From Ignavibacteriota bacterium (GTDB lineage Bacteria; Bacteroidota; Ignavibacteria; UBA10030; UBA6906): a DNA stretch of 43,100 bases. The translations under genes and the position numbers were made by a program. Positions 23,493-26,616 of this stretch are shown here, in pieces. The DNA lies in NCBI GenBank assembly GCA_031394795.1, contig JANNUB010000300.1:1-43100 (forward strand). Reading direction: 5' to 3'. Position 1 is the stretch's first letter. Each line of letters starts with the position of its first letter. The notes under the pieces are model-generated. The model was not told the DNA's origin, searched no databases, and saw nothing but the letters and a program-made list of their open reading frames with translations.

Positions 23493-24323
23493 ATGTCAAG
23501 AGCATTGATTATCGGCGGCGGAATTCTCGCATTTCTATTATTGAGCTATTTGTGTGCAACGATGCACGGACCGGCGTTGACAGCAACGACGCCTTTGGCG
23601 GCGCCAAGCTTGTGGGCCACATTAGAAGATGGAAAAACAATCTTGCGGGGTACATTGCCCGACGAAGCGGCGAAAAACACGATCGTTGCAGAAGCTGCGA
23701 AGATGTATGGCGCGGAGAACGTGACCGATGAACTGAAAATAAGCAACACCGTTGGCAAAGCGGCATGGATGCCTGCCGGGCTCGGAATGTTCGGCTTGCT
23801 TAAGGAGGGGGTCAAACGGGCTGGCTTCGGGGTCGAGAACGGCAAGCTAACGGTGAACGGCATTGTGAAGAACAGTGCCGCGGAAAGCAAGCTGCTCGCC
23901 GACGCGCGCATCGCCTTTCCCAATCATGATCTCATCGACAACGTTGATGTCGAGGCTGCGGCTGTGCAGCGCAACATCGGAGAGTTCCTGGCGACGAGAA
24001 CGATCGAGTTCGCAACAGGAAGCGCGGTGATTCTTCCGCGCGGCAAAGCGATTCTCGACACCGTCGCAATGATGCTGTCTGAAGCGCCCGATGCGCTCAT
24101 TGAGGTTTCGGGGCACACCGATAACCAGGGGAACGACGACGCAAACATGATCTTGAGTCAGCGTCGTGCCGATGCAACGGAAGCGTATCTCATCAGGAAA
24201 GGCGTTGCCGATGCGCGCATGACCTCGAAGGGATTTGGCGTAGCGACGCCCGTTGCGGACAACGCTACAGCGGAAGGTCGTCAGCGCAACCGCCGCATCC
24301 GGTTCGGCTTGAGAGAGAATTAG
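23493..24323 (+). CDS. Membrane-anchored OmpA-family protein with two BON-like modules (ArfA-like architecture)
   Basis: N-terminal TM ALIIGGGILAFLLLSYL. Two G.(I/V).L.G.....K...A...V.(D/N).L blocks. C-terminal OmpA_C motifs IEFATGSA...VSGHTDNQG...N..LSQRRA..V..YL...G......GFG...P.A.N.T..GRQRNRR. Confidence 0.88.
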   Translation: MSRALIIGGGILAFLLLSYLCATMHGPALTATTPLAAPSLWATLEDGKTILRGTLPDEAAKNTIVAEAAKMYGAENVTDELKISNTVGKAAWMPAGLGMFGLLKEGVKRAGFGVENGKLTVNGIVKNSAAESKLLADARIAFPNHDLIDNVDVEAAAVQRNIGEFLATRTIEFATGSAVILPRGKAILDTVAMMLSEAPDALIEVSGHTDNQGNDDANMILSQRRADATEAYLIRKGVADARMTSKGFGVATPVADNATAEGRQRNRRIRFGLREN

Positions 24324-24346
24324 GATCCTGAAAGGTTGTTGAAGCA

Positions 24347-24481
24347 ATGAATTTTTTTACGGCGCATTTCTTTGCCTCTTGTCCGCCGCTCTCATCGGAT
24401 GGTTGGTAGGTTGGCTGTTGGGCAGACTTGGTATGAGTCGCCCATCAGAAAGTCTCGATGTAGAGCTGGCGGGCAAGATGC
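24347..24481 (+). pseudogene. Frameshifted duplicate of the 5' end of the downstream OmpA-family gene (24523..)
   Basis: It starts with ATG AAT TTT and is collinear with 24523-24658. A 1-nt deletion (catttcttt-gcc versus cattttttatgcc) shifts the frame to a TAG after 20 codons. The homologous frame has no start codon and stops at 24499. Confidence 0.7.
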
Positions 24482-24522
24482 TGTTACTCGAATTGATTTG
24501 AAATAACTTAGGATTTAGCATA

Positions 24523-25353
24523 ATGAACTTTTTCTTCCCGCATTTTTTATGCCTCTTGTCCGCCGCTCTCATCGGATGGTTGGTAGGTTGGCTGTTGGGC
24601 AGGCTTGGTATGAGTCGCCCATCAGAAAGTCTCGATGTAGAGCTGGCGGGCAAGATGCGTTTATTGGAGGATGAGCGGAATCGTCTTCAGGTCGAAAATG
24701 CCGCTCTCAAGACAAACCTCACGTCGCACGAGTCATTGGCGAGAGAATACTCGTCGTTCCGCGCGCAACTCGACAAGGCAAATAGTGAATTGAGCGAGGC
24801 ACGCTCTGCCGCTGCAGAACGCAATGCTCTGCGCGGCGAGTTGGAGGCGGCTCTCACGAAGCTGAGTCTGCTCGAACAAACTCAACCGAACAACGAGCTG
24901 TTGCGCCTGGAGCTTGACGGCACAAAGAAAATGCTCCCAACGTACGAAGCAGACCTGCGCGAACAAGAAGAAGAGGTGGCGCGCCTGCGCAGCCGAATCG
25001 GTGAGCTTGAATGGCTTCGATGGGATTTGAAGAACATTCGGTTCCCTGTCGACAGCGCCGAAATCACTCCGCAGGCGGAAGCCGTTCTCGATAATGTGCT
25101 TCCTGCGTTGAAGAGCCTGAATGGTGTGAAAGTAGATATCGAGGGGCATACAGATAACATTGATAGCGAAGAACACAACCGCGATCTGAGTCAGCGTAGA
25201 GCGGAAGCAGTACGCACATACCTGATTGAGAGGGGCGTTCCCTCACATAAGCTAACGGCAATCGGCTACGGCGCCTCCCACCCCATTGCAGACAATGGCA
25301 CGGAGGAGGGACGACAGATGAATCGCCGCATTGAATTCGCTGTGAACCATTAA
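24523..25353 (+). CDS. Membrane-anchored coiled-coil OmpA-family protein
   Basis: TM LCLLSAALIGWLVGWLLG, a heptad-rich segment of about 130 aa, and OmpA_C motifs IRFPVDSAEI...IEGHTDNIDS...N..LSQRRAEAV..YL...G......GYG...P.ADN.T.EGRQMNRR. Confidence 0.88.
   Translation: MNFFFPHFLCLLSAALIGWLVGWLLGRLGMSRPSESLDVELAGKMRLLEDERNRLQVENAALKTNLTSHESLAREYSSFRAQLDKANSELSEARSAAAERNALRGELEAALTKLSLLEQTQPNNELLRLELDGTKKMLPTYEADLREQEEEVARLRSRIGELEWLRWDLKNIRFPVDSAEITPQAEAVLDNVLPALKSLNGVKVDIEGHTDNIDSEEHNRDLSQRRAEAVRTYLIERGVPSHKLTAIGYGASHPIADNGTEEGRQMNRRIEFAVNH
24551..24658 (+). repeat. Second copy of a 108-bp direct repeat (first copy 24374-24481), 107/108 identical
   Basis: Compared base by base; the only mismatch is aga versus agg. 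The offset is 177 bp. Confidence 0.95.
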
Positions 25354-25394
25354 CATTCCACCGTCACCATTCCGAAGTTCAACCGAGTCGCCCC

Positions 25395-25988
25395 ATGTTG
25401 TGGCTGATTGTTTCAACGATATGGCTTTGCCTGCTTCTTGCAGCGTTGATTGGGTTCATTGTTGGATGGACGCTCCGCGGCAAACCGCACAGAGACAACC
25501 GGATCGTCAGGAGCGATTCATCGCACATTGCACTTCAACTTCGGCGAAGTGCGGAGGAGATTGCTGCGGCGCCTCATCATGCAGAAGCGCCACGAGGCGA
25601 CACCCAATCGCTCACAAAGAAAGTCGTGCCCTCCGAGGCACCATTTACCGAGCGTGAGGCAGAGTCGCACTCGCTGCAAGATGCAAACGTGATTTCGGTT
25701 GTCGAGACGACGCGCCCAAAGCGGCTCGCTCAACCAAAGCCCAAAACGGGGAAGCAGCGGAAGCTTGTGAAGGACGATCTCAAGCTTATCGCGGGCATCG
25801 GTCCGGTGCTTGAACGGCGATTGAATAAGTTAGCCGTCTATCGCTTCAAGCAAATTGCCCACTGGACCAAAGATGATATCGAGCGATTTGCACATCTCCT
25901 TCATTCCTTTGGAGACAGAATCACAAGAGAGCATTGGAAAGAAAGCGCGGCGAAGTTACACCTGGGAAAGTACAAGCAACGCTTGTAA
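25395..25988 (+). CDS. Membrane-anchored protein with a C-terminal helix-hairpin-helix-like domain
   Basis: The N-terminal TM IWLCLLLAALIGFIVGW resembles the anchor of the preceding gene. C-terminal DDLKLIAGIGPVLERRLNKLAVYRFKQIAHWTKDDI...RITREHW is a GIGP HhH motif. Confidence 0.7.
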   Translation: MLWLIVSTIWLCLLLAALIGFIVGWTLRGKPHRDNRIVRSDSSHIALQLRRSAEEIAAAPHHAEAPRGDTQSLTKKVVPSEAPFTEREAESHSLQDANVISVVETTRPKRLAQPKPKTGKQRKLVKDDLKLIAGIGPVLERRLNKLAVYRFKQIAHWTKDDIERFAHLLHSFGDRITREHWKESAAKLHLGKYKQRL

Positions 25989-26022
25989 TTCACAATCGAC
26001 CAACCACAACAAGGAGTACGAC

Positions 26023-26616
26023 ATGAGTTCAATTCTCGATATGCTGACAGGCCAGCTTGGCGGATCGGTGATGCAACAAATCGCCGGAAAAGTCGGCGCC
26101 GACGAGGGCACAACAAGCAAGGCGCTTTCAGCCGCGATGCCCCTCTTGGTGAGCGCTCTTGCAAAGAACGCTTCAAACCCGCAGGGTGCACAGGCATTGC
26201 ACAACGCGCTCGCCAAAGACCACAACGGCGGAATTCTCGACGATGTACTCGGTTTCCTCGGCAACACGGGCGCAGCAAACGGCTCGGGAATTCTCAAACA
26301 CGTTCTCGGCGGGCAACAAGCAACTGTCCAGCAAGGTATCTCGAAAGCGTCGGGCCTCGACGCCAATGCCGTAGGACAACTGCTGCAAATCGCCGCGCCG
26401 CTTGTCATGGCAGCGCTGGGAAAAACAACTGCACAGCAGGGCTTGAATGCGAACACACTCGGACAATTTCTTGGCGGTCAACAGCAGGCGATGCAATCGA
26501 ATCCGCAAGCATCGGGCGTGATGGGTTTGGTGGGAAATCTGCTCGACTCGAACAACGATGGCAACGTTCTTGACGACGTTGCACGACTGGCGGGAAAATT
26601 TCTCGGCGGACGATAG
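26023..26616 (+). CDS. DUF937 (YidB-like) family protein
   Basis: ATG 26023 is preceded by aaggag. The protein is Gly/Ala/Leu-rich with repeated LLG..GG...(I/L)A...G......L..A.P.L(V/M).AL blocks, as in DUF937. Confidence 0.75.
   Translation: MSSILDMLTGQLGGSVMQQIAGKVGADEGTTSKALSAAMPLLVSALAKNASNPQGAQALHNALAKDHNGGILDDVLGFLGNTGAANGSGILKHVLGGQQATVQQGISKASGLDANAVGQLLQIAAPLVMAALGKTTAQQGLNANTLGQFLGGQQQAMQSNPQASGVMGLVGNLLDSNNDGNVLDDVARLAGKFLGGR

Follow-up and report, generated by a model that had tools for sequence, protein, structure and literature searches.

The 43,100-nucleotide stretch analyzed here (positions 1 to 43,100 of contig JANNUB010000300.1 from an Ignavibacteriota bacterium, hereafter the window) holds a real, linked envelope module of four co-directional genes, g1 to g4, on the + strand between positions 23,493 and 26,616. 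With a probability of roughly 0.6, we read this cluster as an enlarged version of a two-gene envelope module that is widespread, has the layout of the mycobacterial arfA-arfB pair and would couple the cell wall to a ligand in the cytoplasm. The four genes encode an ArfA-like inner-membrane protein (g1, 23493..24323, 276 residues), a protein made of an N-terminal anchor, a coiled coil and an OmpA_C domain (g2, 24523..25353, 276 residues), a protein in which a closely similar anchor is followed by a basic linker and a helix-hairpin-helix (HhH)-like domain (g3, 25395..25988, 197 residues), and a DUF937 protein (g4, 26023..26616, 197 residues).

An earlier note on this DNA had described the same four genes together with a degenerate gene start, had taken g1 to be built like mycobacterial ArfA, and had proposed that the nearly identical anchors of g2 and g3 form an assembly module in functionally linked genes and that the HhH domain of g3 would be periplasmic and recall ComEA. 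All four open reading frames (ORFs) are present, and the domain layouts given for g1 to g4 were recovered in the analyses below, as was the shared anchor. The periplasmic placement of the HhH domain did not hold, and the degenerate start held only in part.

A family-specific anchor shared by g2 and g3

The anchors of g2 (residues ~3-26, including C10) and g3 (residues 2-28, including C12) have 13 of 18 residues in common, and no other segment lies within 7 substitutions of either one among the 49,071 six-frame segments of the 4.7-Mb genome to which the window belongs. When a hidden Markov model (HMM) built exclusively from the anchors of HhH-type proteins was run on this genome, its top three matches were g3 (E value of 8e-12), the genome's second HhH protein (7e-4) and g2 (0.015), the next match having an E value of 1.4. 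In an alignment of g3 with eleven homologues, L13, A16, G20 and W25 were invariant and C12, L27 and R28 nearly so, giving the pattern C-x3-A-x3-G-x3-(G/A)-W, a small-xxx-small arrangement like that of transmembrane (TM) packing motifs. Among 7,578 ORFs from the window and the first 108 loci retrieved, this motif was found near the N-terminus of HhH proteins, of g2-type proteins and of one decayed g2 remnant (locus L016), and nowhere else. The likeness of the anchors is not a matter of generic TM composition, and the motif marks a family.

At the DNA level, the two anchors are identical at 30 of 60 positions (50%), with only 4 of 20 third codon positions matching, and their likeness is therefore old and kept at the protein level rather than the product of a recent copy. 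The same figures rule out a recent joining of g3 (5' end) to g1 (3' end) as the origin of g2, as do the OmpA_C domains of g1 and g2, which are 44% identical and not mutual nearest relatives in the genome, and the presence of g2 orthologues (51-74% identity) in at least nine contigs. No homology between g2 and g3 is claimed beyond the anchor, where hhalign gave an E value of 0.013 and a probability of 3% over 25 columns.

A second anchor-type case was observed outside the module. Contig C219 of the window's own genome (958-3249; L011) and contig C8 of genome G009 (L012, 7413-9665) encode a HhH protein of 750-763 residues, with an anchor-like N-terminus (PCMAAAALLGGVLTW), some 20 helical repeats of ~35 residues carrying ELEPL, a KR-rich linker and a g3-type HhH domain. 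In both genomes, its gene lies ~300 nt downstream of a CTP-synthase-like gene (pyrG, by our own reading) and has no adjoining OmpA gene.

Pairing with OmpA_C genes and conservation of the neighborhood

To place the anchor in a wider setting, we used a cross-phylum sample of 80 HhH-domain loci, obtained by pattern search with one genome per species and annotated with our own simple ORF calls and our own HMMs for OmpA_C, HhH and DUF937. An OmpA_C gene stood immediately upstream, on the same strand, of 16 of the 17 HhH proteins with the strict anchor motif, compared with 4 of 57 without it, all four of which have variant anchors (Fisher p ~1e-11, for pairs that are not phylogenetically independent). 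Gaps between the two genes ranged from -3 to 122 nt and were mostly below 40 nt; distances as short as the -3 to 37 nt seen in most pairs are suggestive of translational coupling. The pairing was found in at least seven phylum-level groups, with labels such as Acidobacteriota, Burkholderiales, Myxococcota (Myxococcaceae), Gemmatimonadota, Nitrospirota (Nitrospira), Gammaproteobacteria and Bacteroidota, among others. Where g3 has its linker, these relatives have crescentin- or tropomyosin-like coiled coils, the longest of the proteins reaching 1,188 residues. Most of the partner OmpA proteins have BON or BON-like domains, and the downstream neighbors of the pair vary widely. A search for a cultured carrier by way of the myxococcal member returned only metagenome-assembled genomes, as are all carriers outside the mycobacteria.

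Closer to the window, gene order is conserved in a congener and in related metagenome contigs, for which ORFs were called by our own simple procedure. The order MIP-g1-g3-DUF937-htpX, with g3 orthologues of 43-49% identity, was found in loci L015-L017, and the order MIP-g1-g2-DUF937-htpX, without g3 and with g2 orthologues of 51-74% identity, in L022, L023, L025-L027 and G009, the latter being a species of the window's genus. The MIP gene is directly 5' of g1 in L017, L022, L025, L026, L028 and G009, and in L015, L016, L022, L025 and L027 the gene after DUF937 is a Peptidase_M48 gene in reverse orientation. Since related loci carry either g1-g2 or g1-g3, g2 and g3 fill one slot behind g1, of which the window keeps both occupants. 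The contig of L016 carries g1, a decayed g2 and g3: between the intact g1 and g3, g2 is reduced to an ORF of 115 residues with the anchor and coiled coil (2224-2571) plus a separate OmpA_C fragment. The latter was observed as a 65-residue ORF ending at 2771.

Among 61 relatives, the genomes with a g1 orthologue (G000, G009, G019 and G028) are exactly those with the HhH protein. Two congeners, G008 and G003, have at the syntenic site only a 111-residue gene, encoding an anchor without the Cys, a short coiled coil and a KR-rich tail, with weak Pfam matches to ZapG-like and LapA_dom. This small gene (L013, 6944-7279, in G008; L014, 3710-~4030, in G003) was observed in a stretch with a GroES-like gene, a cytochrome c gene and htpX. 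Patchiness (4 of 61 relatives) and loss within the genus in G008 and G003 indicate that the module is dispensable.

The ArfA-like partner and its cysteine

In g1, Pfam detected BON (29 bits, cut-off of 27) and OmpA (76 bits) behind a hydrophobic N-terminus. The layout is that of an N-in TM helix (residues ~4-22) ending in C21-x3-H25-G-P, followed by two BON-like regions and OmpA_C, and the soluble part is predicted to be periplasmic and to bind peptidoglycan. The Asp (GxTD) and Arg (LSxxRA) of OmpA_C domains bind the diaminopimelate moiety of peptidoglycan, as seen in structures of AbOmpA and Pal. Both residues are intact in g1 and g2, in which GHTDN...LSQRRA can be read and whose OmpA matches reach 76 and 89.7 bits, respectively.

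At their N-termini, the partner OmpA proteins have a basic tail and one TM helix. A Cys occupies the outer end of that helix in 26 of 27, within C-x3-H in 19 of 27 and often followed by (G/A)-P. The only partner without it (L038) goes with an anchor in which Gly replaces the Cys, and the stand-alone anchors of G008 and G003, whose genomes have no g1, have Leu at this position. With the anchor N-out, its conserved Cys would lie at the same periplasmic face as that of the partner. This pattern suggests that the two TM helices may be joined, perhaps by a disulfide or at a Cys/His site.

These data bear on an alternative that we consider quite unlikely, namely that the genes are neighbors by descent and not partners, their anchor being a common helix of the LapA/YhcB type and the association with OmpA reflecting shared regulation in an envelope stress islet. 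Such a view would account for the sub-threshold LapA_dom matches in g3, in ArfB and in the 111-residue protein of G008, the latter also with its ZapG-like match, for the anchor-bearing HhH protein beside pyrG in the window's genome and in G009, and for the varied downstream neighbors of the pair. It fits poorly with the short distance between most paired genes, the restriction of the motif within the ORF set, the exactly matching presence and absence among the 61 relatives and the Cys that the partners conserve at the corresponding face of the membrane. Recurring gene order and the pairing of the anchor with OmpA_C support instead the functional link and the specific assembly module put forward in the earlier note.

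Among solved structures, the best match of g1 was Rv0899/ArfA of M. tuberculosis: residues 36-271 (236 residues) align with residues 27-273 of 2l26_A (phmmer E value of 4.9e-22), with BON and OmpA_C collinear. With its single N-terminal TM helix, a BON-type and an OmpA_C-type region in the same order as in Rv0899, g1 belongs to the ArfA type. We extended the comparison to 34 mycobacterial arfA loci. Directly 3' of arfA, in about two thirds of them, lies an ORF of 35-51 residues (MDFVIQWLWYLLAFVVGSLVAWLITVVTIKRTSEEE...), which is ArfB, with a short acidic N-tail, a TM helix with A-x3-G-x3-A-W and a basic flank. The top 17 matches of the anchor HMM among 3,746 mycobacterial segments are all at the ArfB position, each scoring only 6.5-12 bits. 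In mycobacteria, the ArfA TM helices terminate in IG[WY], and the residue of ArfB at the position of the Cys is Trp. From these features, ArfB is probably a minimal anchor, for which proven homology is not claimed.

Also observed in these loci were ArfC-like proteins (L157, 3989-4858; L144, 3882-4391; and other mycobacterial loci), with an N-terminal TM helix (WWLxxLxF...) and a basic or low-complexity region. They end in one to three repeats (…GW.VKGNEDSMLYHTP.SP.Y..T.AEVWF…), a repeat motif for which there is no Pfam family.

The ompATb operon is required for ammonia secretion at acid pH (PMC12183614), which raises the possibility that the module works like the Arf system, in ammonia release and acid adaptation, with g2-g4 standing in for ArfB and ArfC and with no nucleic-acid role for the HhH domain. 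The collinearity of g1 with ArfA, the anchor layout of ArfB and the composition of ArfC (TM helix, basic low-complexity region and C-terminal domain) speak for this proposal. The Arf mechanism is itself unexplained, with the roles of rv0900 and rv0901 called elusive (PMC12183614), ArfC has no HhH domain and no ammonia-producing or -transporting gene was noticed in the cluster, and we regard the proposal as improbable; it concerns the physiological role, for which the only evidence comes from the genetics of M. tuberculosis, and would be compatible with the structural model of a wall-to-cytoplasm link.

The C-terminal domain of g3 and its predicted cytoplasmic placement

Beyond its anchor, g3 consists of a disordered basic linker (residues 33-114) and a four-helix domain (residues 125-197; DNA ~25767-25985). 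AlphaFold2 (AF2) modeled the TM helix and the C-terminal domain with a confidence score (pLDDT) above 90 (~95 for the C-terminal domain) and the linker below 50. No Pfam family was detected in g3, nor any HHH family at E ≤ 0.1, including HHH_3/ComEA. The last ~75 residues match C-terminal extensions in the NCBIfam models of alphaproteobacterial NuoE, L21, S2 and PhaH (phasin), with E values from 3e-18 to 2e-8; the best is NF009040 (3.3e-18) and the L21, S2 and PhaH fusion models range from 3e-12 to 2e-8, all being domain-level matches below the whole-protein cut-offs. The same region matches two cryo-EM chains, 9wqv_a and 8yy9_O (E values of 7e-10 and 1e-8), namely Urf1/protein-3h of Rhodovulum sulfidophilum and protein-O of Dinoroseobacter shibae. 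By sequence, g3 is of the COG3743/NuoE-extension type, with a ~70-residue DDLKxIxGIGPxLE...W...RI.R..W module.

In Foldseek searches, the C-terminal domain mainly retrieved HhH modules (the Pol iota thumb, the N-terminal domain of RadA/Rad51 and the C-terminal domain of NusA), all with E > 1, and Pfam IMS_HHH passed the cut-off in one homologue (L105, 33.7 bits) and was borderline in L030. No catalytic domain was found in g3; the name of COG3743 reads "predicted 5' DNA nuclease", and our literature search returned no experimental work on nucleic-acid binding or nuclease activity of COG3743. Our guess is that nucleic acid is the likeliest ligand of the HhH-like domain. The g3-family profile matches 18,262 clusters of the representative library at E ≤ 0.001. 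Proteins of 2,280-3,115 residues in the same library (P0029-P0031) contain as many as 26 copies of the domain arranged in tandem.

Several lines of evidence place the C-terminus of g3 in the cytoplasm. In 34 HhH-type anchors, Lys and Arg together average 0.24 before the TM helix and 3.3 over the 15 residues that follow it, g3 itself having 0 and 5, and this charge pattern predicts an N-out/C-in orientation. Coiled coils in the family reach ~1,100 residues, and the g3-type domain is fused to NuoE, L21, S2 and phasin, which are cytoplasmic proteins. By cryo-EM, the helix that follows the TM hairpin of Urf1/protein-3h was located on the cytoplasmic surface (PMC13066640). Taken together, these observations predict that the soluble part of g3 is cytoplasmic.

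That the anchors are instead N-in/C-out like OmpA proteins, so that the HhH domain of g3 would be a periplasmic, ComEA-like DNA receptor tethered near the wall, as suggested in the earlier note, is highly improbable: the identical flanking charges of the g2 anchor ahead of an intact OmpA_C, most simply read as C-out, and a basic linker beside a HhH-like motif, as in DNA receptors, are outweighed by the near absence of Lys and Arg before the TM helix and the ~3 after it, by coiled coils too long for the periplasm, by the fusions to cytoplasmic proteins, by the position of the Urf1 helix and by the lack of an HHH_3 match. A ComEA-type receptor was accordingly rejected; the (HhH)2 domain of HHH_3 was not detected in g3, and the charges do not predict an N-in/C-out anchor.

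g2, its orientation and a duplicated hairpin at its 5' end

The OmpA_C domain of g2 extends over residues 174-268 with GHTD...LSQRRA (Pfam OmpA, 89.7 bits), and a crude heptad scan found heptad periodicity over residues ~39-125 and 125-172, a Leu-, Glu- and Arg-rich stretch. The peptidoglycan-binding Asp and Arg are kept across g2 orthologues, with minor variants such as GHSDN in P0022. The g2-type anchors have 0 Lys and Arg before the TM helix and 3.1 after it (n = 11), a distribution like that of the HhH-type anchors, yet the domain that follows is OmpA_C. Either the same anchor helix would insert both ways or the OmpA_C of g2 would be cytoplasmic, and either would be without precedent. The orientation predicted for g2 conflicts with the compartment known for its domain, and the premise of the earlier note that the shared anchor gives the same topology meets precisely this conflict.

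Upstream of g2, positions 24347..24501 (+) hold a near-copy of its 5' end, whose ATG at 24347 is out of frame through a 1-nt deletion. The repeat cores (24367-24491 and 24544-24668) are 94% identical at a spacing of 177 nt, and each contains a ~100-nt hairpin of 37 bp (fold z-score, -5.8): copy 1 (24377-24478) lies in the g1-g2 spacer and copy 2 (24554-24655) within g2 codons ~11-45. The designation as a degenerate gene start was right in that a near-copy of the g2 5' end is present, and fell short in that the element is a conserved second copy of the hairpin in all five g2-bearing loci. In each of these (5/5), a near-copy of g2 codons ~9-45 is found in the g1-g2 spacer, which rules out an assembly artefact or a private duplication. 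The spacer copies do not keep the frame, three having a 12-nt deletion, one a 2-nt deletion and one a 1-nt insertion. Copies are 80-95% identical within and between genomes, reaching 99% only in the near-identical pair of G009 and L025. The near-identity of the two copies in the window and the extent of their similarity back to the ATG point to a recent conversion in this lineage.

Both the coding and the structural constraint on this element were assessed. Over g2 codons 9-45, 223 of 252 codons at conserved residues are identical, compared with 609 of 1201 downstream, meaning that synonymous changes are held back there. Across the 11 hairpin copies of 6 loci, 99.5% of the pair cells are standard and 8 pairs have changed on both sides, a result reached by 0 of 500 shuffles; slid controls gave 37-48% pairing. 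No Rfam family matches the hairpins. This conserved twin hairpin, one copy of which lies in coding sequence, may represent a new cis-regulatory RNA, and we would guess that it controls the translation of g2. An antisense ORF of 98 residues (24357-24653, -) was also noted. It extends across the two copies of the repeat, is internally repetitive as a result of its own sequence recurring, and probably came about with the duplication of the hairpin rather than as a gene.

The DUF937 protein encoded by g4

g4 matches Pfam DUF937 (PF06078, YidB family) with 134.5 bits against a cut-off of 25.4. Its start was moved from TTG 25855 to ATG 26023, which is preceded directly by AAGGAG and aligns with the MSS, MNS or MAD at which orthologues begin. 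The protein has no signal peptide or TM helix, and AF2 modeled it as all-alpha (pLDDT of 70). It is encoded by the most conserved gene of the cluster, with 73-92% identity to orthologues from loci whose g3 is only 43-49% identical.

A DUF937-TM-OmpA_C fusion protein is encoded elsewhere in the same genome (contig C573, 4758-5957, -). Besides, genes of the DUF937 or DUF2780 type stand beside the pair in three more lineages: a DUF2780 protein with a weak Pfam cross-match to DUF937 (E value of 0.0044) lies downstream of the pair in L018, a borderline DUF2780 (27.3 bits, cut-off of 27.5) downstream of it in L036, and a divergent DUF937 gene upstream of it in L042. Because of this fusion and these flanking genes, a recurrent but optional link of DUF937 to OmpA-type anchors is supported. 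A g4-type DUF937 is present in the four g1-bearing genomes and in three others of the 61 relatives, alone in those three. No link between DUF2780 and DUF937 was found by jackhmmer in a small local set, no relative of DUF937 was found in the PDB by sequence and no fold match was significant. Literature searches for the function of DUF937, YidB and COG3743 returned nothing useful.

In G019 (L009, 3821-4614), two genes were seen between the HhH and DUF937 genes, encoding by eye a small BON+LysM-like (Kbp-like) protein and a HhH-repeat (DUF4332-like) protein.

Flanking genes and transcription

Upstream of g1 and co-directional with it lies an aquaporin gene (22772..23419, +; Pfam MIP, 134 bits), which keeps this place in loci of the Bacteroidota type and may share a transcript with the module. 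Downstream, the gene for the M48 membrane protease HtpX (26831..27691, -), whose start was set by likeness to orthologues of 286 residues, is convergent to the module, is kept beside it in related loci and counts only as context. A promoter and terminator scan, whose coverage does not extend to Bacteroidota-type promoters, found no strong internal terminator on the + strand. A defence system (Zorya or other) was rejected, as PADLOC returned only generic matches, to coiled coils and, within ZorB models, to no part other than OmpA_C, and none to ZorA, ZorC or ZorD in the cluster, which is not of the ZorAB type.

A model of the module and its weak points

In the model that we favor, g1 would be an inner-membrane protein with a cytoplasmic N-terminus whose periplasmic BON and OmpA_C regions hold peptidoglycan. 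g2 and g3 would be bitopic partners of it, their N-terminal small-xxx-small helix acting as a partner-specific assembly helix which packs against the TM helix of g1, so that the anchor Cys and the Cys-x3-His of g1 may meet at the periplasmic face in a disulfide or a shared ligand site. From there, g3 would run into the cytoplasm, where the flexible basic linker, or a long coiled coil in its relatives, carries the HhH-like domain, and the complex would thereby form a link through the inner membrane between the wall and a ligand in the cytoplasm. g2 may be an alternative partner in the same slot, its expression probably being controlled via the duplicated RNA hairpin, and g4 a putative cytoplasmic accessory protein of OmpA-type anchors. 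Of all this, the domain content, the conserved gene order, the tie of the anchor to a neighboring OmpA gene, the Cys pattern and the covariation of the hairpin are observed, whereas contact between the TM helices, topology, ligand and physiological role are inferred. A role in envelope, acid or osmotic stress is suggested by context only, i.e., by the aquaporin, htpX, BON and ArfA.

Several observations weigh against this model. g2 contradicts a single fixed topology of the anchor, as OmpA_C is known only from the periplasm. The HhH assignment of g3 rests on sequence motifs, IMS_HHH passing in one homologue and the Foldseek matches all having E > 1, and nucleic-acid binding is a guess. The co-variation of the Cys rests on very few independent losses, and L042 breaks the pattern. 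The likeness of ArfB to the anchor is statistically weak (7-12 bits, E values of 0.02-1.4 per sequence). Moreover, DUF937 stands alone in G007 and G010, and the module is patchy among relatives, G008 and G003 having kept only the small anchor protein.

A bolder form of the same idea, which we hold to be doubtful, is a split trans-envelope tether: an ArfA-like grip on the wall, a TM-TM joint and a cytoplasmic coiled-coil/HhH protein that would sit on the nucleoid or on ribosomes, with ArfB as the minimal joint and with dual orientation of the anchor, or a cytoplasmic OmpA_C, as a linked assumption. If it were true, many phyla would have their cytoplasmic contents mechanically tied to the wall.

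OmpA-family wall anchors are usually seen as purely periplasmic, and here an ArfA-like subfamily with Cys-x3-His is encoded together with a partner predicted to reach the cytoplasm. The module offers a concrete and testable idea for coupling between wall and cytoplasm, and it places the COG3743 domain and DUF937 in a functional context for the first time. In addition, one anchor on a "periplasmic" and a "cytoplasmic" domain in adjacent genes amounts to a natural experiment on the rules of membrane-protein topology.

Comparison with known systems

Among the systems considered, ComEA is like g3 in being membrane-anchored and having a HhH-type motif, and differs from it in its HHH_3 (HhH)2 domain and in its N-in/C-out anchor, the g3 family being predicted C-in. 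In the polar hubs HubP and FimV, a periplasmic peptidoglycan-binding domain is connected across the inner membrane to a long scaffold in the cytoplasm, which positions the machinery there, the chromosome origin included. This link between a wall-binding domain and a cytoplasmic scaffold may serve as a working analogy only; HubP and FimV are one polypeptide with LysM and acidic repeats, whereas the module consists of separate proteins with OmpA_C, coiled coil and HhH, and no homology is known between them.

The layout predicted for g3 is shared with ZipA, EzrA and YhcB/ZapG, which are N-out bitopic proteins with a short uncharged or acidic N-tail, one TM helix, a basic flank, a cytoplasmic linker or coiled coil and a C-terminal binding domain. 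The Cys/Ala/Gly/Trp signature is not known from their anchors, nor is a pairing of their genes with one of the OmpA family. A compact C-terminal domain of the same kind as in g3 is found in Urf1, protein-O and protein-3h of alphaproteobacterial phototrophs and in the NuoE, L21 and S2 extensions (COG3743, PRK12373, PRK12278). Like g3, Urf1 has an N-terminal membrane anchor, a long flexible linker and the domain on the cytoplasmic side, and its function is also unassigned; unlike g3, it has a U-shaped pair of TM helices and no single signature anchor, is a product of the nuo operon and forms part of the photosynthetic core complex, without an OmpA partner.

The closest known system is regarded as arfA-arfB. 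The two differ in that ArfB has only 35-51 residues, without coiled coil, HhH or OmpA_C, that aromatic residues in ArfA and ArfB correspond to the Cys of g1 and of the anchors, that ArfC has no HhH domain, that the arf operon has no DUF937 gene and that the mycobacterial envelope is a mycomembrane. They agree in the layout of g1 and ArfA, in that, where ArfB was detected (about two thirds of the arf loci retrieved), the gene after arfA encodes a protein that is like the g2 and g3 anchors in layout (short N-tail, TM helix and basic flank), if only weakly in sequence, and in that the third gene, arfC, encodes a TM anchor, a basic linker and a C-terminal domain, so that the module provides a comparative handle on mycobacterial ArfB and ArfC.

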